Shown: positions 4,698 through 49,545 of the stretch, piece after piece
Position numbering within the stretch: the stretch's first letter is position 1
Layout: every line of letters begins with the position of its first letter
From: an uncultured Alphaproteobacteria bacterium
Lineage (GTDB): Bacteria; Pseudomonadota; Alphaproteobacteria; RF32; CAG-239
DNA length: 64,000 bases
Assembly: GCA_944393175.1 (NCBI GenBank)
Contig: CALXZH010000024.1
Span: 29,813-93,812 of the forward strand
Reading direction: 5' to 3'
Made by a program: the position numbers and the translations under genes
Notes under the pieces: model-generated
Databases searched by the model: none
What the model saw: the letters and a program-made list of their open reading frames with translations, nothing else
Told to the model about the DNA's origin: nothing

Positions 4698-5861
4698 ATG
4701 CTTGGTAAAAAGATAAAAAAAATCAGAAATTGGTGGCAGAATAAAAAAAATCTGCCCCAATTTCGTGCCAAGCTGGCAAAACTTAAATCTGGTAAAGCGC
4801 CTTATAAAGTTGCTCTTATTTCTCATGAATTATCTTCAACCGGCGCCCCTTTGATGTTGTTGGCTGCCGCTAAAGCTATTTTACAAGATGGCGGACAGGT
4901 GAGGGTGCTGTCTTATCTGGATGGAAATTTAAAAGATAAATTTCAACATCTGGGGGTAGAAGTTTTCGTTCATCCCGAATTTCGGGATAATAAAAATTTG
5001 CTTAATGAATTTGCCGGTGATTGTGATTTTGCCGTGGCAAATACGGTTGTGACTTATCCTGTGATTTCTTTGCTTAAAGGACCACAAATTTTATGGTGGA
5101 TTCACGAGGGAAAAGTCATTGATGATGATTATATTGCTCGTTTCAGAAAAAAGAAATTTCGACCCGATTTGGAAGAAACTTTACGCTCGGCTCCAAAGGT
5201 GGCTGTTGTCAGCGATTATGCCAAGCAAGTAGTGGCTAAATATAATTCAAAGGTTCAAATTTTGAATTTGGCGGAAGATGATTGGTTTGGTGATTGTCTT
5301 GAGACAAAGAAAGTAGGCAATATTGTTCAAATTGCCATGATTGGTGCGGTTTGTCCGATTAAAGGACAAGATGTTGCCTTGCAGGCCATAAGTTCTTTAT
5401 CTGATGAGTATCAAAAGCAAATTTCTTTGGTCATTGCCGGAAAAAATGATAATGATTATGCTTATGGTTTAAGAGAAAAATATAAGCATTTATCCAATGT
5501 GCAATGGTATGGTGCTTTGCCTTTTGAAAAGCTTAAAGGTTTTTATGAGGAGCAAGATGTGATTTTGGTTGCCTCACGCGACGAATCTTTCTCTTTAGTG
5601 GCCTTAGAGGCTTGTATGGCAGCAAAACCTTTGATTGTCAGTTCAAATGTCGGGGCTAAATTCTTGGTTGAAAACGAAAAAAACGGTTTTGTATTTGACA
5701 GCGAAAACGCAAAAAATTTACAAGAGGTGCTGATTAAGCTGATTGAGAATCGTCAAAAGCTAAATCTGATGGGACAAGAATCGCGTAAAATTTACCTAAA
5801 ATATGGGAGTATTGACAGCTTTAGAAAAAATTTTTTGCACTTATTGAAAAATAATTTTTAA
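4698..5861 (+). CDS. glycosyltransferase, GT4/group-1 family
   Basis: 387 aa; C-terminal GT-B retaining glycosyltransferase-like region (EESFSLVALEACMAAKPLIVSSNVGA...). Confidence 0.6.
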   Translation: MLGKKIKKIRNWWQNKKNLPQFRAKLAKLKSGKAPYKVALISHELSSTGAPLMLLAAAKAILQDGGQVRVLSYLDGNLKDKFQHLGVEVFVHPEFRDNKNLLNEFAGDCDFAVANTVVTYPVISLLKGPQILWWIHEGKVIDDDYIARFRKKKFRPDLEETLRSAPKVAVVSDYAKQVVAKYNSKVQILNLAEDDWFGDCLETKKVGNIVQIAMIGAVCPIKGQDVALQAISSLSDEYQKQISLVIAGKNDNDYAYGLREKYKHLSNVQWYGALPFEKLKGFYEEQDVILVASRDESFSLVALEACMAAKPLIVSSNVGAKFLVENEKNGFVFDSENAKNLQEVLIKLIENRQKLNLMGQESRKIYLKYGSIDSFRKNFLHLLKNNF

Positions 5862-5934
5862 ATTTTAAACTTTATTTCACTTTATTTGTATCTATTTATT
5901 CTTGATTAATTTTATATATCAAGAAAGGTTGTTT

Positions 5935-7284
5935 ATGGATACAAGTAGTATTGCGGAGGCCTCCCAGTTAATTTTGGGGATGAATCCGAAAATTGTGGCG
6001 ATTGCTATCGTGACAATTTGTTATTTAGTAATTTTTTCTGAAAAAGTTAATCGTGCAATTATGGCTTTGCTCGGTGCCGCTGCCATGGTTATCAGCGGTA
6101 TTCTGACACAAAAGACAGCTTTGGCCGGAATTGATTTTAATACCATTGCTTTGTTAGTAGGTATGATGATTATCGTAGCTATTTGCGAAAGATCGGGTAT
6201 GTTTCAATTTGTGGCGATTTGGGGAGCAAAACGTGTGCACGCAAATCCGCGCGGATTGTTGGTTGTCCTTGGATTGGTGACCGCTCTATTCTCCGCTTTT
6301 TTGGATAATGTGACGACGGTTTTGTTAATTGCTCCGGTTACTTTTAGAATTTGTCAGCGTTTGAAGCTTAATCCTTATCCTTATTTGGTGATGGAAATCT
6401 TTGCTTCCAACCTCGGCGGAACAGCTACACTTATCGGTGATCCACCGAATATCTTAATCGGTTCATCAATTAATTTAAGTTTCAATGATTTCTTGGTTAC
6501 TTTGGGGCCGGTGGTTGCTGTTTCTATGCTTATTTTGGTCGGTATCTTCGATTTTGTGGTCGGACGTAAATTGACCGCGACCGAAGAAGATAAAGCTAAA
6601 GTTATGCAGATGAATGAGGTGCAATGTATTGCCGATAAAGGTTTGCTCATCAAATCGTTAGTCGTTTTGTGCGGTGTTATTGCCAGCTTTATTTTTGCAC
6701 ACCAACTCAATATGGATAACGGAACCATTGCTCTGACCGGTGCTGCCGTTTTGATGTTGCTTTATACTTTTAAGGGCAATGCCGAAGAAAGAGATGATAA
6801 AGTACGTAATGCTTTGTCTGCTGTGGACTGGACTACAATTTTCTTCTTTATCGGTTTGTTTGTAATGGTTTATGGCTTGGAAGTTACGGGTATTCTATCT
6901 TATTTGGGACATAAATTTATTGAAATGACCGAAGGAAGTGTTAATCGTTTGGTCTTCCTCATTTTGTGGAGCTCAGCTATCTTATCCAGCATTATTGATA
7001 ATATTCCTTTTGTGGCTACAATGATTCCAATGTTAAAATCTATGGAACCATCTTTAGGCGGACGAGAGGCTATGATGCCGGTTTGGTGGGCCTTGTCTTT
7101 GGGTGCTTGTTTTGGCGGAAACGGTACGTTGGTCGGTGCTTCGGCTAATGTGGTCGTTGCAGGCTTGGCTATGCGCGAAGGTCATCCGATTAATTTTATG
7201 AAATTCTTACTCTGGTCAATACCGGTTATGTTGATGAGCGTCATCGTGGCATCGGTATTCCTGTATCTAGAATTTATTATGTAA
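5935..7284 (+). CDS. ArsB/NhaD/CitMHS-superfamily ion transporter
   Basis: ~450-aa polytopic membrane protein with duplicated halves typical of the ArsB/NhaD permease fold; ATG at 5935 preceded by AAAGG RBS. Confidence 0.6.
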   Translation: MDTSSIAEASQLILGMNPKIVAIAIVTICYLVIFSEKVNRAIMALLGAAAMVISGILTQKTALAGIDFNTIALLVGMMIIVAICERSGMFQFVAIWGAKRVHANPRGLLVVLGLVTALFSAFLDNVTTVLLIAPVTFRICQRLKLNPYPYLVMEIFASNLGGTATLIGDPPNILIGSSINLSFNDFLVTLGPVVAVSMLILVGIFDFVVGRKLTATEEDKAKVMQMNEVQCIADKGLLIKSLVVLCGVIASFIFAHQLNMDNGTIALTGAAVLMLLYTFKGNAEERDDKVRNALSAVDWTTIFFFIGLFVMVYGLEVTGILSYLGHKFIEMTEGSVNRLVFLILWSSAILSSIIDNIPFVATMIPMLKSMEPSLGGREAMMPVWWALSLGACFGGNGTLVGASANVVVAGLAMREGHPINFMKFLLWSIPVMLMSVIVASVFLYLEFIM

Positions 7285-7292
7285 TTAATCAC

Positions 7293-7328
7293 AAAAGAAA
7301 AACCTCCGCTTGCGGAGGTTTTTCTTTT
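7293..7328. terminator. bidirectional rho-independent terminator between convergent genes
   Basis: CCTCCG-loop-CGGAGG hairpin flanked by A-run upstream and T-run downstream. Confidence 0.6.
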
Positions 7329-8289
7329 AGGCCTTTTTGTTTTTGGTAGAAATCAGTGAAGCGGCAATGCCAATGAAGATAATTGAAAATGTTATTGACA
7401 GTGAATGCCAAGCTTCAAGCTTTATTCCTACGTATGGGAGAAAGATTTTGCTTCCGATAAAAATTAAAATGATTGATAAAGCTTGTTTTAAGTAAACAAA
7501 ACGGTAAACTGCAGCTTCCAATAAGAAATATAATGCTCTTAAGCCCAGAATGGCAAAGATGTTACTGGTGTAGATGACAAATATATCTTGCGTAATCAGG
7601 AAAATTGCAGGGATACTATCTAGTGCGAAAATAACATCCATGGTTTCCACAATTAACAAAGCAAAGAATAATGGAGTGATGTAATGATGTCCATTTCTTT
7701 TCATAAAAAAGTGTTCGCCGTGTATTTCGTGGGTTACGTGAAAAAATTTAGAAATTGTTTTGTATAAGCGGGTTTCTTTTAGAGGTGTTTCTTCTTTGGA
7801 GGAAGGTAGTACCATCTTGATACCCGTATAGAGCAAGAATGCAGAAAACAAGTATAATACCCAGTGGAATTCTTTTATTAATGCATCTCCTACAAAAATG
7901 AGAATAGCTCGCATTACCAGTGCGCCTAAAATACCCCAGAACAGAACGCGGTGCTGATACATTCTTGGAATTTGTAACGAGGTGAAGACTAAAGAGATGA
8001 TGAAGACGTTATCTAAAGATAAGCTCTTTTCTACCAAAAATCCGGTAAAGAATAACATACCTTTATCAAATCCTTCTTCGTACATAACAAAGACGCCGAA
8101 AATGCAGGCGGCTAAAATATATACAATGCACAAAACCAATGTATGCATAAAATTTGGGACTTCGTTCTTGCGGTTAAAAAACAGTAAGTCCCAGAGTAAT
8201 AAAACAATTACGGCTATGCCGAATATTGTCCACATCCACGTTGAAGATAATGTGGCGTGATGTGTAAATAAATATTGTAATCTTTCCAT
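7327..8289 (-). CDS. TerC-family integral membrane protein
   Basis: 320 aa, multiple TM helices, TerC-like conserved segments (ALDSIPAIF, DNVFII). Confidence 0.75.
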   Translation of the reverse strand: MERLQYLFTHHATLSSTWMWTIFGIAVIVLLLWDLLFFNRKNEVPNFMHTLVLCIVYILAACIFGVFVMYEEGFDKGMLFFTGFLVEKSLSLDNVFIISLVFTSLQIPRMYQHRVLFWGILGALVMRAILIFVGDALIKEFHWVLYLFSAFLLYTGIKMVLPSSKEETPLKETRLYKTISKFFHVTHEIHGEHFFMKRNGHHYITPLFFALLIVETMDVIFALDSIPAIFLITQDIFVIYTSNIFAILGLRALYFLLEAAVYRFVYLKQALSIILIFIGSKIFLPYVGIKLEAWHSLSITFSIIFIGIAASLISTKNKKA

Positions 8290-37695: not shown

Positions 37696-39693
37696 GTGCC
37701 CGAGTATGATGAAACATTCTTAAATTTAAGATTTATGACTACTTTTGCTTCAATGGCCGCTAAACTTGCCGGAAAAACAAAATCTTTTGTAAAATCACAT
37801 CCGCTGTTTTCGGCTTATGTTAATAGTTTTGCAGATGTTTATCCCGCTTTGGAAAATTTGGCGCTTTCGGCAAATATTGATTTTAATCTTAATCTTTATC
37901 TTCCAAAAGTCGATAAAAATTGCACCTATGATAAGGTTAATGCATTTTTTTCTGTGGCTCCGGAACTTGCTCAAAAGTTATCAGCAAAATTTCCGCATGT
38001 TTATCCTTGGTATGAGTTTGGAAATTCAGAGCAATTATATGCCGCAAAAGTTAATGTCGATGAATCGTCCGATAAAGTTACAAATAAGTATTGGATGAAT
38101 GCCACGCTTAAATTGGCTAATACAGAAATCTTATTGCGCAAATACAACTTGAAATATTATTTGTTTGAAAGTATTGATGAGGCGCTTTTACCTGAAAAGT
38201 TAGCACAGTTGGTACAAGCGCATCTCTATGAAAAAAATTTGAAATGTGACGATACGGACGTTGCTCAAATTTTATATGAAGTTGGTCATAATTTTTTGAT
38301 GAATCATGCCAAAGTCACTTTGCCTGATTTATCGGAAACGGTTGGCGTTCAGTTAGCTAAAAAATACCAAGTGTCGGAAAATCTTACAGCTCATGCAACT
38401 TGGAAAAAAAGTATGGAACAGTTGCATTCCATTATTAGTTCTTCCCAGAAAAAAGATGCGTTTTTTAATCTTTATGAAAGGTATTTGGAAAGACATAGAA
38501 AGGGTTTTGCCGATGCTTTGAGTGATAAAGATATGTTAGAAAAAATTGTTGCCGGAAATAAAATTGTATTTCCATCTGAAACAGAATTGAACAATTATAA
38601 CGTCTCTCATTTGGAAAAAGTGAAGCAATATGAAGAAAATGGTCGTGTTTTTGAAAAAGAGTGTGCTTTGCAAATTACTTCTGTTCTGAGTATGGTTTCT
38701 GCTCAATTATATCGTAAATCTTCCGGTGTGTATGATGCCGTACTTGGGGAAAGTTTTTCTGCATTCGATACCATGCAAAGCTCCCTAAAGAAAAATATTC
38801 CATTTGATTTTTTTGATGCGGTTACAAAAGTTGCCCGATTGGGGAAGCAATCGCAAAATCAAAATACTCATCCGTTTATTTGTGATGATAAAACGCTTTT
38901 AATACTTAAAGAAAAAGAACATTTAACAGATGTCGATAAGAGTATTTTGTTTGCACAATTAGATGCTTTTATTGAGAATTATGCCGCTTTCAGAAAAAAT
39001 GAGAAAAATACTTTCAATCAAACATTTGAAAATGTTTTAGACGATATTTCACTTAGAAAATCTTGTTTACCTAAGCTAAACCTACTTTCCTTAATGAAAT
39101 GGTCGTATAATGAGCAAATTGCAGAACAAAATTTCAATCAAATTCAAAATAAGCAAGATATTGCGTCCAGGCTGGAACACTTGCATCATCATAAATTTGA
39201 CTATTTAGTGGATTATTTAGATACGGCAAAAAATATTTTTCCGGAATGTGCACACATTAATTCGCTTGAGAAAGCCGCTGAAATTGATAAAAATGTGTGT
39301 GTTAAAATCTTAATTCCTTTTTATTGCGGACAGTCTACTCAAATAAATCACAGCCAACAGCAGAATTTTTTTGAAAAATTGTTCTATGATTATGCTCGTT
39401 CCGTGTTCCCTCAGCATAAAGCTATATACAAAATGTTAGAGAGCAAAACAGTACCGCAGGGGAAAGAAGGGCAAAAAATTTTTGGTTTAGGAAAAAAAAT
39501 AAAAGATTTGCAATTTAATTTGCAAAAAAAATCTTATTTGTTTTCAGTATTGAAACAGGTGGATAATTCACTTGAAAATGAGAAAAATGTATATTCTAAC
39601 TACTTGAAAATAAAAAATAATAAGGTTGATGTATTATCCATGAATCAAATGCAAAATTTGGTATTGTCTGTTTGGAAAGAAAGAAAAAAATAA
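37696..39693 (+). CDS. hypothetical protein, Lys/Asn/Glu-rich orphan (665 aa)
   Basis: Long uninterrupted ORF, AT-rich codon usage, no recognisable motifs; ends ~80 bp before tRNA-Phe. Confidence 0.45.
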   Translation: MPEYDETFLNLRFMTTFASMAAKLAGKTKSFVKSHPLFSAYVNSFADVYPALENLALSANIDFNLNLYLPKVDKNCTYDKVNAFFSVAPELAQKLSAKFPHVYPWYEFGNSEQLYAAKVNVDESSDKVTNKYWMNATLKLANTEILLRKYNLKYYLFESIDEALLPEKLAQLVQAHLYEKNLKCDDTDVAQILYEVGHNFLMNHAKVTLPDLSETVGVQLAKKYQVSENLTAHATWKKSMEQLHSIISSSQKKDAFFNLYERYLERHRKGFADALSDKDMLEKIVAGNKIVFPSETELNNYNVSHLEKVKQYEENGRVFEKECALQITSVLSMVSAQLYRKSSGVYDAVLGESFSAFDTMQSSLKKNIPFDFFDAVTKVARLGKQSQNQNTHPFICDDKTLLILKEKEHLTDVDKSILFAQLDAFIENYAAFRKNEKNTFNQTFENVLDDISLRKSCLPKLNLLSLMKWSYNEQIAEQNFNQIQNKQDIASRLEHLHHHKFDYLVDYLDTAKNIFPECAHINSLEKAAEIDKNVCVKILIPFYCGQSTQINHSQQQNFFEKLFYDYARSVFPQHKAIYKMLESKTVPQGKEGQKIFGLGKKIKDLQFNLQKKSYLFSVLKQVDNSLENEKNVYSNYLKIKNNKVDVLSMNQMQNLVLSVWKERKK

Positions 39694-39770: not shown

Positions 39771-39846
<76 letters not shown>

Positions 39847-39974
39847 TCTAAAAGCCTTGGTTTTCCAAGGCTTTTTTTGTATTCAGTTCATGGCGTTTTT
39901 CTTGATGCATTCAACCAGTAAGCAAATAGTAAGCACTTCTATAGTAAATTCTTATAAGTTTGTGTAAGATTTGT

Positions 39975-40301
39975 TTAAATACAAAAGCAGACAATCCTTT
40001 CTTCTGTGTTTATATATAGGCTGTTACTTTCTACTCTTTTTATGAAATCTTCATCTGTTTCCTCCTCTGATTTATATTCGTCAAAATTACCCCAATCGCC
40101 ATTGATGATTGCATTATCTACGACAATATCTGGACGATTATTCTCGGAAATTCCACATTCACGGATTAAATCGCAAAAATAGTCCCATAAACAATCGGGA
40201 ATATGCCAATTGTAATGAGATTCTACAAAATTGCGTCGATTATCTAATAAATCAATATAATCATCGACGTCTAACTCAATTTTTATGGTATTATTTGTCA
40301 T
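39975..40301 (-). CDS. small acidic hypothetical protein (island cargo)
   Basis: ~108 aa from MTNNTIK (AAAGGA RBS); very acidic (DVDDYIDLLD, EEETDEDF); no family recognised. Confidence 0.4.
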   Translation of the reverse strand: MTNNTIKIELDVDDYIDLLDNRRNFVESHYNWHIPDCLWDYFCDLIRECGISENNRPDIVVDNAIINGDWGNFDEYKSEEETDEDFIKRVESNSLYINTEERIVCFCI

Positions 40302-40772
40302 TATCTTTTCCTTTAAGAATAACAGTTGAATAGACAATGTTTTTTTCAAAACATCACTAATCACTTGAAAAATTGGAAAAGCAAACGAATTTTCGTGTTC
40401 TAGGATAACATTAAAATGCGGTAACTTGTTGATTTTTCATGTATAAGTTTTGTTTAAGTGTTATTTTTGTCTTGTATGTATATATAAGTTAAAAAGTTAC
40501 AGAGTAATTTTGAGATTGAAGAGAAATATATTTATTGGCTTTCTATAAGTAAGGTAAAGAAAAATAACGTATTAAAAAAGTATTACATCCCCCATAGTTC
40601 CCAAAATAGGGGGAGTATGTATATGGCTAAAATCTATATATGACCTTAATAGCATGTGATTATCATTTTAGAGTATTTACATCTATAACTCAACTTGATG
40701 TTTTATTAATTTATATTTTACTATTGTGAGATATCTTTTATAGCCTAGATGTTTTTATGGAAAGGAAGAAAC

Positions 40773-41066
40773 ATGAAGAAAGTTTTAGTTGTTTGGGCTG
40801 GTATGTTGGGATTATCAGCTTGTGTAACTCATGTTGATGTTGCTTACCAGCAACAAGGAAGTAATTGCTTGTATTCAGAAAAAGTTTCAGGTGAAGGTCT
40901 TTTTGGCAGAGATAGAGTATTGGAAAAAACGATATCTTATGAAGCAACACAATGTTCTCAAGTTATTGCCAGTGATTTAAAAAATAACAATAATAAGGAT
41001 CAATCAATTGTGACCACTACAGGCTTTTTTGATGATAGTCCGGTAGTTGCTAGAGCTGTTAAGTAG
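40773..41066 (+). CDS. small lipoprotein (island cargo)
   Basis: 97 aa; signal peptide with lipobox LGLSAC; AAGGAAG RBS before ATG 40773. Confidence 0.45.
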   Translation: MKKVLVVWAGMLGLSACVTHVDVAYQQQGSNCLYSEKVSGEGLFGRDRVLEKTISYEATQCSQVIASDLKNNNNKDQSIVTTTGFFDDSPVVARAVK

Positions 41067-41346
41067 TTACAGTTATGCTATGACACATCATAGAGAAGGT
41101 GCTTTGTTAGCGCCTTCTTTTTTTATGTCAATATGTTATGGTGTATATTTCTTGTCCATCTCTTTAATATATAGAGAGATGGACAGAGAAAGAAAAATAA
41201 TCCTTGATTTTGAGAAGTATTATCGCTAACATTTTGTTAGCTAATATTTTATTAGTTAGTGCCTGAAGAGGTGCGGAGCTTTCATCGGCTCCTACTACAT
41301 TCGGTGTTAGGGATAACATCGTTAATTGTTATTATAACAATAATAT

Positions 41347-41380
41347 CCCCGACTATGGCTCAATGGTCGGGGAGCTTTTA
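41347..41380 (+). terminator. hairpin + U-tract (terminator-like) within structured leader
   Basis: CCCCGAC-12 nt-GTCGGGG followed by AGCTTTT. Confidence 0.4.
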
Positions 41381-41473
41381 GCATATGTTCAGAAATCATA
41401 TTTCTGTCTTTGAAAGAATGTGGTTTTAAAAGCTATAAGAATCATTTAATGTAGTATGATTGATGAACTCTCC

Positions 41474-41507
41474 GACCACCTTCTAAACAGGTGGTTTTTC
41501 TTTTAGA
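41474..41507 (+). terminator. hairpin + U-tract immediately upstream of DUF805 gene RBS (possible attenuator)
   Basis: ACCACCT-TCTAAAC-AGGTGGT followed by TTTTTCTTTT; RBS GGAGAGG begins 5 nt later. Confidence 0.45.
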
Positions 41508-41524
41508 TTTTGGAGAGGTATTTC

Positions 41525-42277
41525 ATGAATTCTTTGGTTCAGCTAGTGAAACATTCATTGAATGATGTTAATTCTACAAAAAATATTGATGTAATAAATG
41601 TAACAACTCGTTCAACACTATTACACGCAAAACATGTAAATAAATTTGAAAATCAATCAGATCAAACAAGTGAAATACAACAAATAGATAGCAATGTAGA
41701 GCATCCAATGCAATATCACATATCGCAAGGTACTATGATTTTGTATTTGCTATTTTTGGGTATAATAGGTGCTATTATATTTTATTTTATATTTCGAAAA
41801 GATAAGCATGATATGAAAGAAGTTAAAATGTTGAAAAATAAAAAATTTTCTATTTACAATCCTGCATTTGGCAATTTATTATTTTGTTCTGGTAGAATAA
41901 ATCGTTTACATTATTTTATCTATACACTTATTTTATCTGTGTTTTTTATGTTTCTGGTTTGGGGAATGATTTCCCTCAAAATAGATCCTGAATCCATTTT
42001 ATACACCGTAATTATTTTACGGTGGGTGGTTGGTCTCCCTCTTGTGTCCAAAAGATGCCATGATATTAATGTCAGTGTAAGTTATTATATTATGTATTCT
42101 ATATTTTGCTGCTTACTCTCTTTGTTTTCAGCAGATGAGTTTAGTCAGATTGTAACGTTTTTAATTAGAGGAGTTGATACTATAATTGCATTAATATTGT
42201 TGTTTAAGAAAGGAACTAATGGCAATAATAGATTTGGTATTTCCCCTTTGAAGACTAAGGAGAAAAAAAATGACTAG
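41525..42277 (+). CDS. DUF805-family inner-membrane protein with ~70-aa N-terminal cytoplasmic extension
   Basis: C-terminal 3-TM region with DUF805 hallmarks (GRINRLHY, KRCHDINVS, NRFG near C-terminus); ATG 41525 preceded by GGAGAGG; stop overlaps next gene start (ATGA). Confidence 0.65.
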   Translation: MNSLVQLVKHSLNDVNSTKNIDVINVTTRSTLLHAKHVNKFENQSDQTSEIQQIDSNVEHPMQYHISQGTMILYLLFLGIIGAIIFYFIFRKDKHDMKEVKMLKNKKFSIYNPAFGNLLFCSGRINRLHYFIYTLILSVFFMFLVWGMISLKIDPESILYTVIILRWVVGLPLVSKRCHDINVSVSYYIMYSIFCCLLSLFSADEFSQIVTFLIRGVDTIIALILLFKKGTNGNNRFGISPLKTKEKKND

Positions 42278-43829
42278 AAAATTTAAATATAGCCTTTGTG
42301 GCTTTGTTATATTTATAATTCTTGCCGTTTCTGCTTGTATATGCACGAATAATCAAGATGAGCTTATTCAGGATGATAAAGTTGCTTTTTCTCCTTCTAA
42401 AGAGTGTGAAAATACAATTATTAGCCTTATAAAACATTCTGAGAAAATTGATATAGTCGTGTTTGATATTAATAATGATAATATTGTTGAGGCTTTGCAG
42501 AAAGCTGAAAAACAAGGTAAAAAAATCAGAATACTTACGGATAAAAGACAAGCAGCGACTAAAGCCTCTAAAGTTATAGATTTGTATAAAGCTGGGATTA
42601 ATATTCGTGTAAATTCAAAGAACAAAATTGAACATAACAAATTTGCGGTATTTGATAATAAGTATGTGATTACAGGTTCTTATAATTGGACTAATCCGGC
42701 AAGTGAGAGAAATAGTGAAAATTGCCTTCTTTCTGTGGAAAATGAAGATATTATAGAAGATTATAATAATCGTTTTGAGTATTTGTGGCAGATAAATACA
42801 AAGAAAAAATCTGAGGCGTGGTTCCACAAAAAATTAAATCAAAAACAATATAATAATCGTAAATATATTACCAAACAGCAGCAAAAAAAGATAGAAAAGG
42901 TCTTAGATGATAGTATTCAGACCTTTTCGGCTAAGGGTGGCGCGGTTATTGTTTTAGATGCAGATAGTTCTCAAGTGCTATCGATGACTTCTATCCATAA
43001 AGGGGAGGGTGTTGTTGATTATATTGCGGATTATACATACCAACTTGGTTCGATTTATATGCCGTTTACAGTTGCTTTGGGTATAAAACAAAATGTTGTT
43101 TCAAATACGACGGAATTTGATGTTTCTAAGCCTTTGAATGTTCAAGGGTATAACATTTCAGACGTTAATCCTCTAAAAGTTGATAAAATTACTCTGCAAG
43201 ATGTGTTGTCTAAAAGTTCTAACATTGCGACTGCACAAATTGCTACGGATATAACGCCTAAACAACATAATAAATTTTTAAAATCTTTAGGTTTGGGAGA
43301 ACCGATTGTTTTAGAAAATTTGCATACAGCTAAGCCGATTTTACCGGATTTAGATGATGAAATTACTATAGCCAATTTGGGATATGGTTTTGGTATTTAT
43401 GCAACGCCATTACATGTGGCAGCAGCTTATGCAGCTTTGGTCAATGGCGGTCAATATCATGCCCTATATCTCAAAAAATCTGAAAAAACGGATGGTAAAC
43501 AAGTTATTCCTTCCCAAATATCGAAAGAAATGCGTGAATATTTACGTCAAGTCGTTACAAATGGTTCGGCAAGAAAAGCTAATCTTTCGTATGTAGATGT
43601 TATGGCAAAGACAGGAACTGTGTCTAAAATGATTGATGGAAAGTATCATGACAATATTGTTATAACTCATGTTGTGGGAAATTTTGAATATAATGGTATG
43701 CACTATGTTGTATATGTTTTACTTGATGAACCGCAACCGACAAAACAAACTTATGGGTTTGTAACGTCAGGTTGGAATGCGGTTCCGACGATGGCTCAAA
43801 TTATTAATATCATAGCAAAAAAATCTTAA
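42270..43829 (+). CDS. lipoprotein fusing an N-terminal single-HKD phospholipase-D/Nuc-like nuclease domain to a C-terminal class-B PBP transpeptidase-like domain with degenerate SxxK (SIYM)
   Basis: Lipobox AVSAC; HKD motif H122-x-K-x4-D129 followed by GSYNWT (Nuc/PLD family); C-terminal domain shows PBP motifs SSN (316-318) and KTG (447-449) at canonical spacing, but the SxxK position reads S261-I-Y-M264. Confidence 0.65.
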   Translation: MTRKFKYSLCGFVIFIILAVSACICTNNQDELIQDDKVAFSPSKECENTIISLIKHSEKIDIVVFDINNDNIVEALQKAEKQGKKIRILTDKRQAATKASKVIDLYKAGINIRVNSKNKIEHNKFAVFDNKYVITGSYNWTNPASERNSENCLLSVENEDIIEDYNNRFEYLWQINTKKKSEAWFHKKLNQKQYNNRKYITKQQQKKIEKVLDDSIQTFSAKGGAVIVLDADSSQVLSMTSIHKGEGVVDYIADYTYQLGSIYMPFTVALGIKQNVVSNTTEFDVSKPLNVQGYNISDVNPLKVDKITLQDVLSKSSNIATAQIATDITPKQHNKFLKSLGLGEPIVLENLHTAKPILPDLDDEITIANLGYGFGIYATPLHVAAAYAALVNGGQYHALYLKKSEKTDGKQVIPSQISKEMREYLRQVVTNGSARKANLSYVDVMAKTGTVSKMIDGKYHDNIVITHVVGNFEYNGMHYVVYVLLDEPQPTKQTYGFVTSGWNAVPTMAQIINIIAKKS

Positions 43830-43911
43830 AACATACATCGAGTAACACAAAATAATTATATGCCTGTCCAATATATTATATATATAAATATTGGACAGGC
43901 TATATTATATG

Positions 43912-44970
43912 TTATTTTTCAGCTTTCAGAATGTTGCCGATAGTTGATTTGGAAATTCCTGTTGTATTAGCAATTTCTCTATAGCTTGCACCTTGTTCAT
44001 GCAATGTTTTTACGATAGAATAAGTATCAACCCAAGCAATACCTCCGTCCGTAGTATCTACTAAATCAATATTAAAATTTGAAATGTCTTTGCTCGAAAG
44101 GTTACGGTTCTTTTCAAATTTTAAACGACATCTACCGCCGTAAATCGCATATTCGTCTGATATATCTGAATAGTTTTCTTCAGCTTCTTCTGTTTTGGTG
44201 AGCTTTTTCTTGTTTGGTGTCGTGACTTCAAGATTAATCACTGTATCTAGTATATCTTCTCTTTTAGATATTCCTCTTTGGCCACCTCTCTTTCCAGAAT
44301 GATGAACTAATAATACAGCAATTCCTTGTTTCCTTAGCTCCATTAGCCACTCTTGAATTATAAGCCAAGCATTCCCGTCTAATTCATCTATCTTAGTTAA
44401 AGATGATATATTATCTAAGATAACAAATTTTATATTTTCGTTGAAAATAATATCATTAATATTTTTTTGCATTAAACCATACGCAATATCAATTGAGGTA
44501 AATGGTTGTAAATCCGCTGAAAAAATATGCAAGTTGTCCATTGCATTCACTTCTGTATCAAAATTTTTAGCTATTTTTGAAAAGCGTTCTTGAAGTAAGT
44601 TTGCTTGCATTTCCCCATCAATATATAACACATTTGAAGGTTTATAGGCTTTCCAACGTAAGAATTTACTTCCAGTTGCAATTGCGTAAGCTAAAGACAT
44701 AGCAAAAAAGCTTTTTCCTACTCCTCTATAAGCATGTAACATTGTTAGACTTTTAGCGTGAATAATCGGATCAAGTAGCATTTCTGGCTTAGGCAAATTC
44801 AATTGCATAAAATTCTTTAAGTTAAATATTTTACAAGGATTTTTATTCTCTTGATTATTTGTAATATTTATATTATTGTCGTTTGCAGGATTGGTTGATA
44901 AATCAATCGTTTGTTCTACTCCGTCTTGTTCCAGCAAGGCGGAATTTTTTATATCCATATTATCTTCCAT
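43912..44970 (-). CDS. RepA/DnaB-like RecA-fold ATPase (AAA_25-like) with C-terminal HTH; island replication/mobilisation protein
   Basis: Walker A AYRGVGKS, Walker B FVILDN, HHSGK motif; C-terminal HTH (SYREIANTTGISKSTIGNIL). Confidence 0.65.
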   Translation of the reverse strand: MEDNMDIKNSALLEQDGVEQTIDLSTNPANDNNINITNNQENKNPCKIFNLKNFMQLNLPKPEMLLDPIIHAKSLTMLHAYRGVGKSFFAMSLAYAIATGSKFLRWKAYKPSNVLYIDGEMQANLLQERFSKIAKNFDTEVNAMDNLHIFSADLQPFTSIDIAYGLMQKNINDIIFNENIKFVILDNISSLTKIDELDGNAWLIIQEWLMELRKQGIAVLLVHHSGKRGGQRGISKREDILDTVINLEVTTPNKKKLTKTEEAEENYSDISDEYAIYGGRCRLKFEKNRNLSSKDISNFNIDLVDTTDGGIAWVDTYSIVKTLHEQGASYREIANTTGISKSTIGNILKAEK

Positions 44971-45217
44971 AGTTTATCTCCTTTTTTGAATATTCAGAAG
45001 TTGATGTTACTTTAGAGGTTTGCGAATCTAACCAATCTAAAACGTCTTGCTTTTTGTATAGTCGCTTGTTTCCCAATTTTATATAAGGGATACCACCGCC
45101 TGATACAGCTTTGCAGTTAAACCATGAGATTGATTTGTTGAGATATGCAGCAACAATTTTTGTTGGCAACAATGCATCTGCCGGAGCAGATAGAAAATTA
45201 TTTAAATTATTATTCAA
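44960..45217 (-). CDS. AlpA-family phage/island regulatory protein (excisionase-like HTH)
   Basis: 85 aa; AlpA-like pattern (PTKIVAAYLNKSISWFNC...GIPYIKLGNKRLYKKQDVLDWL); overlaps repA-like start by 11 nt. Confidence 0.65.
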   Translation of the reverse strand: MNNNLNNFLSAPADALLPTKIVAAYLNKSISWFNCKAVSGGGIPYIKLGNKRLYKKQDVLDWLDSQTSKVTSTSEYSKKEINYGR

Positions 45218-45345: not shown

Positions 45346-46029
45346 TTATTGAATATTCTTTTTCTTCTTGGGATATAACATTCTTCGAATCGATAAAGAA
45401 TAGTCTGAATTGCACCAATTATATGCTATTTCTTTTGCATATTCCTGAAGTTTTTTTATATTTTCTTCTTTATTGGCAAAATGATTTATGGTTAATTTTT
45501 TATTCAAGTTTTTTTGCTGTTCAAATAAATCCTTGGTATATTTCTTTAGTCTCTCATGCTTGTCGTTTTTGGCTTTTACTCCTGCGTTGCTTATTTCGAG
45601 CTGTCTTTCTTGTAATATTTGTTTAGCCAGTTCTGCATCGGTATATTTGAGATGTTTGATACAAATATCAAATCCATTAGAAAATACTAAGAAGGCAAGG
45701 TATAATCCGTCTTTGTTATTTTGAAGTCCTGTATATATATTGTGTAGCTTTTGTTGTAGAACTGTCAGTTCTTTATTGGGATAAACTTTATTACCTTTCC
45801 AAAAATCAACTACTGTCTTTATGGTTAAATTTTTTTCTTCTTTTTCTAGCAAAAATACAGAAATATTGATTAAATTTATGAATAATGAGCTTGTTGCATA
45901 ATTATCAGCCCCAAACCCCGTTAAATTATAAAAATATTCGCTGGGATCTAATATAAAATAATCCTGATTAAGATTATAAGCATCGGTTATCAATAATTCA
46001 TAAATTTCTCTGATTTCTTGTCTTTTCAT
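45346..46029 (-). CDS. hypothetical protein (island, between int and alpA)
   Basis: 227-aa ORF, no recognisable motif; sits where satellite regulators are often found. Confidence 0.4.
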   Translation of the reverse strand: MKRQEIREIYELLITDAYNLNQDYFILDPSEYFYNLTGFGADNYATSSLFINLINISVFLLEKEEKNLTIKTVVDFWKGNKVYPNKELTVLQQKLHNIYTGLQNNKDGLYLAFLVFSNGFDICIKHLKYTDAELAKQILQERQLEISNAGVKAKNDKHERLKKYTKDLFEQQKNLNKKLTINHFANKEENIKKLQEYAKEIAYNWCNSDYSLSIRRMLYPKKKKNIQ

Positions 46030-46047: not shown

Positions 46048-47274
46048 TTATACTATTTTATTAAATATGTTTACCACATTATTGGTTTCATTTTCTTTAA
46101 CTCCGGCTTGTTTTAGTATGTAATCTTCTATAAGTTGCATTGGCTTACGCAAGGTTTCAGTTTCAAATTGGATATATCCTGCGGTAACATCATCTTCGGA
46201 ATGGTTTAAGAGCTTTTTTAGTGTAAAATTTGTTATTCCGGCAATATGATTATTGGCAATACTGGCAAAAGTTCGGCGAATATCATGTAAAGAGAATTTA
46301 ATACCGCTGTTTTCTGCAATGTGTTGTACAGTTTTTCTTTGATTTTCAACATGCCCACTTTTATTTTGAGCTGGAAAAACGTATATCGAATCGTTATTTT
46401 CTTTTAATTTTAACAAAAACTCTCTTAAATATTCTCCCATCGGTAGAATGTGTTCTTTGTGGTTTTTGGTATGTTCAAAGGTAATGGTGTTTAATTTGAA
46501 GTCAATATTGCACCATTTTAGAGTTCCGGCTTCTTGGTCTCGACATCCAGTAAATAGAATGAATAAACATTGATTTTTAACTGTTTTTACGTTTTCAGTG
46601 TCTTGTTCATGGTGTTGAAGTCCAAAAAAGAAGGTTTTAATTTGAGATGGGTGAATGTAACTTTGTCTTCTGGGTACTTTATTCCATAATTTGAAGGCTT
46701 TTAATCGATTGCAAGGATTGGAAGGAATGATTGGTTCTCCATTTACTATATATTTTTCCATTGCAAAATTAAATACGGCTCTTAAAAATCTAAAATCAGA
46801 GTTAGCAATAGATTTTGATGATTTAGATGTATCCAGAAATCTATTTTCTATCATTTCACGAGAGATATTCGTTAGAGCTTTATTTGCCCAATCTTTAAAA
46901 CAAAGGCGCATACTCCGTTCATATTTTATTTTTGTGCTTTCAGTAATGGTTTTAATCTTAATGTATTCTTCATAGGCTTGTTGTAGGGTAATACTTTTTG
47001 TCTTTTCTTCCTTTTCTCTGGTTGTAATGTCTATGCCTTGAGCTAGATCACCTAGATATTTTTTTGCTATTCTACGAGCTTCTTCGGGAGTAAAAACATT
47101 AATCTGACCTATTTTTTTACGAATTGTTTTTCCTCTATCGTTTCTCGCTTGTATAATATAGCTGATTTTTTTCTTGGTTACTTTTATGCCGAATCCTTTT
47201 AGGTCATCATCCCAGTAAAATTCTTCTTTGTCTGTGAATTTTAACTTATCAATATTTGATTTATTAATTTTCAT
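46048..47274 (-). CDS. int: tyrosine site-specific integrase, P4-type (N-terminal DUF4102-like arm-binding domain)
   Basis: 408 aa; catalytic R (GCRDQEAGTLKW), HDIRRT, and C-terminal VTAGYI Tyr; N-terminal MKINKSNIDKLKFTDKEEFYWDD...GFGIKV typical of P4-family integrases that target tRNA genes. Confidence 0.9.
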   Translation of the reverse strand: MKINKSNIDKLKFTDKEEFYWDDDLKGFGIKVTKKKISYIIQARNDRGKTIRKKIGQINVFTPEEARRIAKKYLGDLAQGIDITTREKEEKTKSITLQQAYEEYIKIKTITESTKIKYERSMRLCFKDWANKALTNISREMIENRFLDTSKSSKSIANSDFRFLRAVFNFAMEKYIVNGEPIIPSNPCNRLKAFKLWNKVPRRQSYIHPSQIKTFFFGLQHHEQDTENVKTVKNQCLFILFTGCRDQEAGTLKWCNIDFKLNTITFEHTKNHKEHILPMGEYLREFLLKLKENNDSIYVFPAQNKSGHVENQRKTVQHIAENSGIKFSLHDIRRTFASIANNHIAGITNFTLKKLLNHSEDDVTAGYIQFETETLRKPMQLIEDYILKQAGVKENETNNVVNIFNKIV

Positions 47275-47446
47275 TTTAAATTTCCTTTCTAAAATCAGTA
47301 AGCAAATAGTAAGCAGATTTGATAGAAATGCTTATGAGATGAGAAATGTTTCTGTAAGAATGAAAATTAAATAAATCAAGTAAAAACAATTGGTTATATA
47401 AGAAACTGTAAACAGAACAAATATGTTGTAATATCGCTTTACCAAA

Positions 47447-47526
47447 ACTGAAAATCCTCGTGTCGGCGGTTCAATCCCGTCCCCGAGCACCATCTAAAAG
47501 CCTTGGTTTTCCAAGGCTTTTGTTGT
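47447..47526 (+). repeat. attR-like direct repeat: copy of tRNA-Phe nt 31-76 plus downstream terminator
   Basis: ACTGAAAATCCTCGTGTCGGCGGTTCAATCCCGTCCCCGAGCACCATCTAAAAGCCTTGGTTTTCCAAGGCTTTT identical to 39801-39875. Confidence 0.9.
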
Positions 47527-47930
47527 ATGGTGCTCTCGCCAATCGAGCGGCGCAGGGCTTGCTCTCTTGGGGACGGGCCTCGCTTTGAAACTTAATTTCA
47601 CTTCCGAAACTGTTCGTTTCGTCGTTCAATAAATTTTCAAAGATGTTGCATACAAAAACAATCAATCGTGATTGTTTTTGCTTAGCCATCCCAACTCGCA
47701 CCATCTAAAAGCCTTGGTTTTCCAAGGCTTTTGTTGTATGGTGCTCTCGCCAATCGAGCGGCGCAGGGCTTGCTCTCTTGGGGACGGGCCTCGCTTTGAA
47801 ACTTAATTTCACTTCCGAAATTGTTCGTTTCGTCGTTCAATAAATTTTCAAAGATGTTGCAGACAAAAACAATCAATCGTGATTGTTTTTGCTTAGCCAT
47901 CCCAACTCGCACCATCTAAAAGCCTCCGAT
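47493..47930 (+). repeat. 211-bp tandem repeat, 2 complete copies + 16-bp start of a third; each unit ends in a tRNA-3'-end mimic (CCCAACTCGCACCA)
   Basis: Units 47493-47703 and 47704-47914 near-identical (period 211); third begins TCTAAAAGCCT then diverges. Confidence 0.9.
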
Positions 47931-48063
47931 TAAGAAAGTTTTGTGTGGCTAAAAGAATTTATTATCTTGTGTCTTACGCCTTATCCTTATATTGTATGAG
48001 TCTAAATTGAAAAAACACTTAGTTTTTTTTTGTCTTTCAGTGATTGATATTATGGATAGGTAG

Positions 48064-48914: not shown

Positions 48915-49196
48915 ATGAAAAACTTTAACTCTACTTCTAATTCTTCTTTAAACTTAAGTGAAAGCGCTATTCGTGAAGCTGCTTACTATATTTGGAAAAA
49001 TAACGGTTGCCCGGCTAACACCAGCTTGAGCGACTGGAATGCTGCTATTAACCAACTTTCTTCTATGGCTGCTTTGAACTCTGCTGCTAAGAAAATTTCT
49101 ACAAAGACTTCTTCTTGCAAAGCTTCTACCTTGGTTAAGAAAACTCCGGTTAAAAAAGCTGCTAAAACTACTGCCAAAAAGAAATCTTCTAAATAG
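48915..49196 (+). CDS. DUF2934-family small protein
   Basis: IREAAYYIWKNNGCPANTSLSDWNAA matches DUF2934 signature; Ala/Lys-rich tail. Confidence 0.5.
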   Translation: MKNFNSTSNSSLNLSESAIREAAYYIWKNNGCPANTSLSDWNAAINQLSSMAALNSAAKKISTKTSSCKASTLVKKTPVKKAAKTTAKKKSSK

Positions 49197-49302
49197 TTGG
49201 TATGTTGGTAAACTAAAGGCTCCGCAAAAGGAGCCTTTTTTCATAATTATTTAATCTTTTTGATTTAATATGCTTTTATTATTAAGTGTTGGGAGATGTC
49301 AT

Positions 49303-49545
49303 ATGTTTGATGAAAAAACTATTCGTGAGACGGCTTATTATATTTGGAAAAATAACGGTTGTCCGGCTAATACTTCTACTCAGGATTGGAATGCCGCAAT
49401 TGAGCAATTAGAGCAGAAAGATGCTTTGGCTACCGCTAAACAAATATCTTCTTTGTATCAAGCGGCTTTCTTGAATTCTTTGACCAAAAGCAAAAGCCGT
49501 AAAAAAGATAGCTTACAGTTAATGCGCCAAATCATTTTGAAATAA
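49303..49545 (+). CDS. DUF2934-family small protein (paralog)
   Basis: IRETAYYIWKNNGCPANTSTQDWNAA; ATG 49303 preceded by GGGAGA RBS. Confidence 0.5.
   Translation: MFDEKTIRETAYYIWKNNGCPANTSTQDWNAAIEQLEQKDALATAKQISSLYQAAFLNSLTKSKSRKKDSLQLMRQIILK

Follow-up and report, generated by a model that had tools for sequence, protein, structure and literature searches.

A predicted exported Nuc-type nuclease fused to a degenerate transpeptidase domain, carried behind a structured RNA leader on a small tRNA-integrating island of gut Alphaproteobacteria

Mobile genetic elements are known to encode periplasmic DNases that degrade transforming DNA, namely IdeA and SxnA of the SXT-type integrative and conjugative elements of Vibrio cholerae and Dns of the Campylobacter jejuni element CJIE1 (PMC12378983). 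Here, we analyzed a 64,000-nucleotide stretch of an uncultured alphaproteobacterial genome (GenBank contig CALXZH010000024.1, positions 29,813 to 93,812; hereafter the window), in which a small island at a tRNA-Phe gene carries two overlapping genes, the first (gene 1) encoding a DUF805 membrane protein and the second (gene 2) a fusion of a Nuc-type PLD domain with a transpeptidase (TP)-like domain. Like IdeA, SxnA and Dns, the fusion nuclease is carried by an integrative element and predicted to be exported, and its proposed benefit is the destruction of incoming DNA in the periplasm; unlike them, it has an unrelated PLD fold and an extra domain of a wall-binding type. In its architecture, the protein is a variant of the known type of exported nuclease encoded by mobile elements.

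With Nuc of the IncN plasmid pKM101 (1BYR), Zucchini/MitoPLD and NucT, the fusion has in common the single-HKD PLD fold of ~150 aa and the H/K/D, GSxN and NSEN residues, and it would be exported as the members of this group are. Nuc is also encoded on a mobile element, pKM101, as the fusion is on the island. Unlike Nuc, the fusion adds an N-terminal anchor and a C-terminal TP-like domain of 300 aa, and the sequence identity is modest (E = 1e-13 to 1e-17). A further architectural parallel is the restriction endonuclease BfiI, in which a Nuc-like single-HKD PLD catalytic domain is followed by a targeting domain at the C-terminus. The targeting domain of this cytoplasmic enzyme recognizes a DNA sequence, whereas the extra domain of the fusion appears to be a dead transpeptidase and the protein is predicted to be exported. 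Both genes and the parts of gene 2 are located as follows:

41525-42277, + strand: gene 1, DUF805 membrane protein, 250 aa (Pfam DUF805)
42270-43829, + strand: gene 2, Nuc-TP fusion, 519 aa (Pfam, family alignment, PDB search, AlphaFold2 (AF2), Foldseek, dN/dS)
gene 2, aa 1-23: predicted anchor/lipobox
gene 2, aa 37-190 (nt 42378-42839): Nuc-type PLD domain, with the HKD motif at nt 42633-42656
gene 2, aa 221-519 (nt 42930-43826): TP domain, following a linker
gene 2, TP motifs: degenerate SxxK (SIYM) at 43050-43061, SSN at 43215-43223, KTG at 43608-43616

The N-terminal half of gene 2 gave a single PLDc_2 match in Pfam (aa 50-173, 2.9e-25), and the residues H122-N-K124-x4-D129, G136-S-Y-N-W-T-N142 and N148-S-E-N151 are invariant in 13 homologues of the family alignment, which bears out the single-HKD, Nuc-type domain that the original prediction had read from the letters. 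In a search against PDB sequences, this half matched Nuc of pKM101 (E = 1.5e-13), whose GSFN and NSEN align with its GSxN and NSEN residues, as well as mouse and human MitoPLD/Zucchini (1.8e-17) and, weakly, NucT (1e-5). The comparison thereby covered the case of a non-nuclease PLD clade, and it supports a placement of the predicted domain in the single-HKD Nuc/Zucchini nuclease clade rather than with the two-HKD lipid synthases. When unsaturated pairs are compared, the PLD part shows a dN/dS of 0.06-0.08, indicating strong purifying selection; the TP part has values of 0.14-0.20, and the N-terminal anchor a value of about 1. The same lineage also encodes secreted Nuc proteins of 174-185 aa that stand alone in core-genome neighbourhoods (dnaN/recF, prfC/glgP) and share 45-63% identity with the PLD half. 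They share the C-terminal motif YLWQINTKKKS with the PLD half of the fusion, which therefore holds a complete Nuc unit. The AF2 model of the fusion has a pLDDT of 82, and its TP half is modelled with confidence.

The C-terminal half matched the Pfam Transpeptidase family PF00905 (aa 224-493, 2.1e-39), and the modelled domain superposes on the TP domains of the class B penicillin-binding proteins (PBPs) FtsI/PBP3 and Neisseria gonorrhoeae PBP2 (Foldseek E = 1e-23, TM-score 0.85). It has the fold in common with them and keeps SxN and, in the window clade, KTG. Unlike these enzymes, the gene 2 product lacks the pedestal/dimerisation domain PF03717, in whose position the Nuc domain sits, and it lacks the catalytic Lys and, in other clades, also the Ser. 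In the window copy, SxxK reads S261-I-Y-M264 and aligns with S-A-M-K of PBP2. The PBP-like domain of the original prediction accordingly stands as a PBP3-type fold but not as an active penicillin-binding domain. Across the family alignment the catalytic motifs are degenerate in different ways per clade:

window clade: SxxK = SIYM, SxN = SSN, KTG = KTG
P0008 and P0009: SxxK = AAYM, SxN = SSN, KTG = KTG
P0010: SxxK = ATYT, SxN = SSN, KTG = KTG
P0012: SxxK = PVYQ, SxN = DSN, KTG = KTG
P0011 and P0013-16: SxxK = SIIK, SxN = SSN (SSNA in P0015), KTG = ITG

The dN/dS of the TP part rules out a decaying domain and, together with the broken catalytic motifs, indicates a domain that is maintained, yet not as an enzyme. 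We therefore read the TP half as a putative binding or anchoring pseudo-enzyme. The TP domains most closely related to it (~40% identity) belong to a family of short lipoproteins without a pedestal (P0125-P0130, P0143, P0126), some of which are fused to MORN repeats. In several of them SxxK has likewise been lost, at the Ser or the Lys (AIMN, TVLQ, SVWD). P0126 aligns across the length of the fusion and has MORN-like repeats where the PLD domain would be.

At its N-terminus, MTRKFKYSLCGFVIFIILAVSAC, the gene 2 product fits a lipobox (VSAC, Cys23), in line with the lipoprotein originally proposed. This holds for the window copy, but the Cys is not conserved and is a Tyr in P0010, P0011 and P0013-16. 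Since a hydrophobic helix or a lipobox is found in all family members, the conserved feature is, as far as the alignment can tell, a predicted membrane anchor and not lipidation, and the same evidence supports a product that is probably exported or anchored. The combination of both domains is rare. Among 5.8 billion proteins it formed 16 clusters at 90% identity, one of the 1.84 billion 50% representatives (P0013) spans both PLD and TP, and all occurrences of the fusion gene belong to a single family of islands in Alphaproteobacteria from gut and rumen.

Taken with the island context described below, these features lead us to propose, with a probability of roughly 40%, that gene 2 encodes an envelope-anchored DNase which acts as a DNA barrier, uses the dead TP domain as a targeting module and is carried as leader-driven island cargo. 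The product would be a membrane- or lipid-anchored, periplasm-facing, metal-independent endonuclease of the Nuc family, in which an FtsI-type TP domain that has lost catalysis would serve as a binding module, most plausibly holding the enzyme on peptidoglycan stem peptides. The fusion gene would be one of several alternative cargo modules of tRNA-integrating, excising islands of ~7 kb, and would be transcribed via read-through of the leader, jointly with whichever small gene sits between leader and nuclease. Most likely, it would degrade DNA in the periplasm or at the cell surface, be it transforming DNA, that of competing elements or possibly that of phages, and would thereby shield both the island and its host in the manner of IdeA, SxnA and Dns. 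If true, the short list of element-encoded periplasmic DNases would gain a new architecture, in which a dead transpeptidase tethers a PLD nuclease, and the TP domain would be a clear example of a PBP fold put to new use for targeting without catalysis. A wider picture, which we regard as possible but doubtful, combines three parts: a leader class that governs a secretome regulon co-opted by mini-islands, an exported nuclease barrier that protects the island from curing or displacement, and the first PBP fold reused as a peptidoglycan-targeting nuclease module.

The main argument for a nuclease comes from the sibling islands. Every fusion gene found adjoins an AAA_25/HTH_17/integrase module, except in the loci L089-L091. 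As retrieval through the fusion is biased towards its own carriers, the island family was also sampled without cargo bias through homologues of the AAA_25 protein. This sampling showed other cargo in the slot, and the fusion as a core gene of the island backbone was thereby rejected. The commonest sibling type (L234-L238) carries type II CRISPR-Cas (Cas9, Cas1, Cas2) and an SNase-like gene, a second (L239) an SNase-like secreted nuclease with a PDZ lipoprotein, and a third (L241) an Ank-DUF805-KTSC protein. The island of L234 (3815-15011, ~11 kb) holds a complete type II CRISPR-Cas module (Cas9 of 1166 aa, Cas1, Cas2) as well as RhuM/Fic and the leader-driven SNase-like gene on the same Int/HTH_17/AAA_25 backbone. 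A leader-driven SNase-like secreted nuclease occupies the same slot in two of the three other AAA_25-sampled island types and also in L169, and islands of the fusion type additionally carry genes for type I restriction-modification (R-M), TIR, an NTase-associated protein, a KAP NTPase, Fic or PIN. Two unrelated folds of exported nucleases thus hold the equivalent position in 3 of 4 island types, which argues that selection acts on nuclease activity towards nucleic acid. The location of both genes in the variable cargo slot of a small integrase/AlpA-like/AAA_25 island, as proposed originally, agrees with the att repeats and with the defence-type cargo in sibling slots. Nucleases, Cas9, R-M and DUF805 proteins take turns in the slot of this mini-island family, whose hosts belong to a gut lineage that has barely been studied.

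Several points weigh against a DNA barrier. The active-site loop of the AF2 model (aa 139-149) is of low confidence, and the binding of the dead TP domain to peptidoglycan is a property that we infer. PADLOC-DB 2.0 matched no described defence system, giving only weak domain-level PLD hits to DrmC (2.6e-9), MkoC and DpdK, whose partner genes are absent; this agrees with the earlier statement that no described defence system has such a pairing, and PADLOC, PHROG and literature searches returned nothing specific for the operon. DNA that enters through phage infection or conjugation is usually shielded while in the periplasm, and as to natural transformability, dprA alone is visible in the window. 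Finally, stand-alone secreted Nuc homologues (up to 63% identity) reside in core-genome contexts, which makes a housekeeping role such as nucleotide scavenging or turnover of extracellular DNA (eDNA) equally natural for this fold.

This last point leads to the main competing explanation, a nutritional or matrix nuclease. Here, a cell-retained Nuc would digest extracellular DNA for nucleotide or phosphate salvage or remodel biofilm eDNA, the island would supply a useful trait to its host, and the TP domain would retain both the enzyme and what it releases at the wall of the producing cell. Besides the stand-alone genes (174-185 aa) in core contexts, some of which stand under the same leader (L024, L026, about 10 variants), this explanation draws on the company of the leader, which otherwise precedes autotransporters, pilin-like proteins and lipoproteins. 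The Helicobacter pylori NucT, a PLD nuclease, is linked to purine salvage. The module has also been kept after loss of the mobility genes: a window segment of 2.84 kb (41090-43926, comprising leader, DUF805 gene, fusion gene and terminator) occurs at 99% identity in L089-L091, which represent two NCBI metagenome-assembled genomes and one Logan assembly of the same tRNA-Phe locus (copy in L089 at 5400-8233). The backbone genes (orf129, AAA_25, HTH_17, orf227 and the integrase) are missing here, and the flanking DNA matches the window at only 88-92% identity. The operon was thus retained when mobility was lost, which also counts in favour of the DNA barrier. The module in L089-L091 is a candidate for a domesticated or decayed island remnant, or for module exchange; an assembly artefact was rejected, as the same junction is present in three independent assemblies. 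A nutritional role nevertheless leaves unexplained why two unrelated nuclease folds recur beside CRISPR, R-M and TIR cargo, the leader stands at only 2 of 30 species-representative stand-alone Nuc loci, and an anchored periplasmic enzyme would reach bulk eDNA poorly. We therefore consider it rather unlikely, below the DNA barrier.

The union of a stem-peptide-binding fold with a phosphodiesterase is also suggestive of a substrate other than nucleic acid. The PLD domain might act on an envelope phosphodiester, for instance in a lipid-linked precursor of peptidoglycan or in a glycan. The TP-like domain would deliver this substrate by binding the D-Ala-D-Ala stem, with the variable upstream membrane proteins as protectors. 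Conservation of the SxN motif and of the overall TP groove residues would fit this idea, as would the upstream genes, which mostly encode small, diverse, immunity- or holin-like membrane proteins. However, the PLD part shares 45-63% identity with ordinary secreted Nuc proteins that stand alone and retains the exact Nuc/Zucchini motif set, SNase-like nucleases substitute for it in sibling islands, pointing to nucleic acid, and the partner in L101 is soluble and acidic, so that we regard both the envelope substrate and the protector role as improbable. An exported nuclease with variable small neighbours could, in addition, serve as an antibacterial toxin, either contact-dependent or secreted, against which the upstream membrane protein would confer immunity; contact-dependent activity had been raised as an alternative in the original prediction. 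A toxin finds hardly any credence with us, since none of the loci contains or adjoins a delivery domain or secretion-system gene (T5, T6, T7, Rhs, PAAR), the N-terminus is a predicted membrane anchor, the putative immunity gene stands upstream and does not co-vary, and the DNA of a target would be out of reach from the periplasm.

Next, we considered gene 1 and its relation to the nuclease. Its ATG at 41525 is preceded by the Shine-Dalgarno sequence GGAGAGG, and its product is identical to the 250-aa protein P0121 called in public assemblies. The assignment to DUF805 (PF05656) proved correct, with a match at aa 121-238 (E = 7.9e-11, 42.8 bits against a curated cut-off of 25.7) and all of the motifs GRINRLHY, KRCHDIN and NRFG. 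The N-terminal extension had been described as some 70 additional cytoplasmic residues; it comprises ~120 aa, including an additional predicted transmembrane helix (aa 72-90). As a strongly basic segment follows this helix, the positive-inside rule makes it more likely that the first 70 aa are periplasmic instead of cytoplasmic. A DUF805 protein with such an extension formed only 4 clusters in the search of 5.8 billion proteins. The overlap of both genes is real, but it consists of 8 nt (ATGACTAG, 42270-42277) and not of the ATGA at 42274-42277 that had been proposed.

Gene 1 and gene 2 had been considered a dedicated two-gene system, in which the DUF805 protein could act as sensor, anchor or immunity component next to the effector in the envelope. 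The 8-nt overlap and the co-transcription behind one leader would be in agreement with this, as would the unusual N-terminal extension, seen only with the fusion (4 clusters), and the recurrence of DUF805-containing cargo in the island family (Ank-DUF805-KTSC). However, the gene upstream of the fusion is a DUF805 gene (250 aa type) in only three locus types (window, L001, L095) and is replaced elsewhere by an unrelated 4-TM (transmembrane) family of 151-157 aa (L099, L010, L007), a 2-TM protein of 92 aa (L103, L104) or a soluble acidic protein of 250 aa (L101). The 4-TM and 2-TM partners were rejected as divergent DUF805 proteins, as they gave no Pfam match at E <= 1 and no phmmer similarity. 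The fusion genes of L095 and L010 are nearly identical (dS about 0.08) while their partners differ, nucleotide homology between variants starts exactly at the Shine-Dalgarno sequence of the fusion gene, and DUF805 cargo occurs without the nuclease elsewhere in the family (L136, L241). With at least four unrelated upstream genes and these swaps, the DUF805-fusion pair is therefore not an obligate system, and the DUF805 gene is a swappable upstream passenger, not a fixed partner. The proposed linkage is not conserved across loci, a two-component system is improbable, and the overlap from which translational coupling had been deduced is present but arises from whichever upstream open reading frame (ORF) runs into the conserved ribosome-binding site (RBS)/start region. 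KTSC was also seen to recur with island cargo (L007 7224-7559, L136 1363-3213, L241 8876-10720), as a separate gene ahead of the 4-TM partner or fused as Ank-DUF805-KTSC, which hints at a functional link with DUF805 or other membrane proteins.

In front of gene 1 we found a structured RNA leader with the following elements:

41259-41496, + strand: structured RNA leader, ~240 nt
41259-63/41270-74: P0 hairpin
41275-41301/41448-41471: long-range closing helix, spanning ~190 nt
41302-07/41316-21, 41346-53/41366-73 and 41375-82/41432-39: internal hairpins
41474-81/41489-96: intrinsic terminator, followed by a U-run, ~15 nt before the RBS of gene 1

The leader lies between an upstream terminator and gene 1, is kept in all island variants, and stands as one copy ahead of the cargo in all island types sampled through AAA_25. 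A 17-mer from it was found in 7 contigs of IMG/VR and in at least 120 from metagenomes, and nhmmer recovered 139-140 homologous copies with at least 90 distinct full-length variants from gut and rumen metagenomes. In 88/90 variants an ORF on the same strand starts 1-61 nt downstream; as these copies share one orientation, a miniature inverted-repeat transposable element or terminal inverted repeat was rejected as an explanation. The proposed structure is well supported by covariation: in an alignment of 54 sequences, 97% of cells are paired compared to 32-47% in slid controls, 26 pairs show compensatory double changes (in 291 cells), and covariation scores 0.338 compared with no more than 0.106, with 0/500 shuffles reaching the observed values. 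Pairing of the 5' AGGUG with the 5' arm of the terminator, as an antiterminator, was considered and dropped, as the covarying P0 hairpin explains AGGUG better.

A comparison with the 4227 families of Rfam 15 gave no match for the window copy (best ncr952, 23.9 bits against a gathering score of 100, E = 0.052), and 20 other copies gave none at E <= 0.1. Like multi-copy riboswitch and antitermination leaders, this RNA is a structured 5' element that ends in an intrinsic terminator directly before the RBS and stands in many copies ahead of unrelated genes for surface or secreted proteins; unlike them, it has no similarity to any Rfam family. The c-di-GMP riboswitches are an example of such multi-copy leaders upstream of adhesin and pilin genes. 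The leader, the most novel element of this locus, appears to represent an RNA class not described so far and is a candidate for a new type of riboswitch or antitermination element. Since there is no room for a promoter after its terminator, the operon would be expressed by conditional read-through. Among the genes following the leader, autotransporters are the most frequent (21/88), next to stand-alone Nuc (10), DUF805 proteins (7) and pilin-like proteins (7, a class called from an N-terminal motif alone), followed by lipoproteins, SNase-like and MORN proteins, glycosyltransferases and methylases. Nuc genes as generally leader-driven were rejected on the count of representative loci given above. 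A ligand or protein partner of the leader would reveal the signal that controls adhesins, nucleases and island cargo, and DUF805 proteins gain a concrete, testable regulatory context through it. Just upstream of the leader, a perfect palindrome (GCTAACATTTTGTTAGC, 41225-41241) is conserved in most island variants and may be an operator for an island helix-turn-helix (HTH) protein or overlap a promoter.

The island that carries the operon is bounded by direct repeats (99% identity in a direct-repeat scan) and comprises 7.65 kb. Its remaining features and both att sites are:

39771-39846, + strand: tRNA-Phe (ARAGORN)
39801-39882, + strand: attL, an 82-nt direct repeat covering the 3' half of tRNA-Phe and its terminator
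39975-40364, - strand: orf129, conserved island protein at the attL end
40749-41066, + strand: small predicted lipoprotein starting with MKKVLVVWAGMLGLSAC (ORF list)
43862-43900: long perfect hairpin between the convergent fusion and AAA_25 genes (read from the sequence)
43912-44970, - strand: AAA_25 (RepA/helicase-like) protein with a C-terminal HTH, a replication-type gene (Pfam AAA_25 3.3e-29, HTH_38)
44960-45217, - strand: HTH_17 (AlpA/excisionase-like) protein (Pfam, phrog_2528)
45346-46029, - strand: orf227, island backbone protein
46048-47274, - strand: tyrosine integrase with a P4-type arm-binding domain (Pfam Arm-DNA-bind_3 and Phage_integrase; phrog_1 2.6e-52)
47447-47528, + strand: attR, the duplicated 3' half of tRNA-Phe (repeat D2)

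The order is thus orf129 (-), small lipoprotein (+) and operon (+), followed by the convergent AAA_25-HTH, HTH_17, orf227 and integrase genes (all -), and the GC content falls from about 0.40 to 0.30-0.33 across the island. With P4-like satellites, phage-inducible chromosomal islands (PICI) and phage-inducible chromosomal minimalist islands (PICMI), it shares a P4-type integrase, an AlpA-like HTH protein and a helicase-type replication gene as well as the tRNA att repeats, the size of ~7 kb, an excised form and a variable slot for defence-type genes. Unlike these satellites, it lacks a primase domain, and the PHROG primase/helicase families match only the ATPase part of the AAA_25 protein. None of the island variants contains capsid, packaging or terminase genes, and a search of IMG/VR with AAA_25 found no relatives. 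An excised form was observed in a relative: in the Logan contig L008, position 12840 of L007, at the integrase end of the island there, is joined to position 5985 at the orf129 end, and the contig represents the excised or circular form of the L007 island.

Homologues of orf129 occur in the sibling islands L007, L010, L125, L136 and L169 (58-79% identity), and the protein has no match in Pfam, PADLOC or PHROG. For orf227 there was no significant family match either; its position is filled by a gene of similar size in all sibling islands. The small lipoprotein gene, which is followed by a terminator at 41092-41120 (terminator scan), was not found by tblastn in other islands and represents window-specific cargo. 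The hairpin at 43862-43900 is probably a bidirectional terminator and forms the right end of the 2.84-kb module retained in L089-L091.

Further repeats were observed at the island ends. A 46-nt direct repeat with the core AAGCAAATAGTAAGCA lies just within both ends (39913-39958 and 47293-47338), and a similar motif is present at the right junction of the L089 remnant (about 8240-8265); these repeats may be arm-type sites of the integrase or recombination points. Directly after attR, a tandem 211-nt repeat (47487-47947) consists of two copies with 99% identity and a partial third, each opening with the last ~39 nt of the att core (GCACCATCTAAAAGCC), and may represent scars of serial integrations. 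On the other side, directly upstream of tRNA-Phe, a 665-aa ORF (37696-39693, + strand) has no match in Pfam or PADLOC and is missing at the matching position of L089, where FlgE almost adjoins the tRNA region. Two small paralogous genes in tandem (DUF2934; 48915-49196 and 49270-49545), located between the island and topA/dprA, share a 63-nt stretch that is 86% identical.

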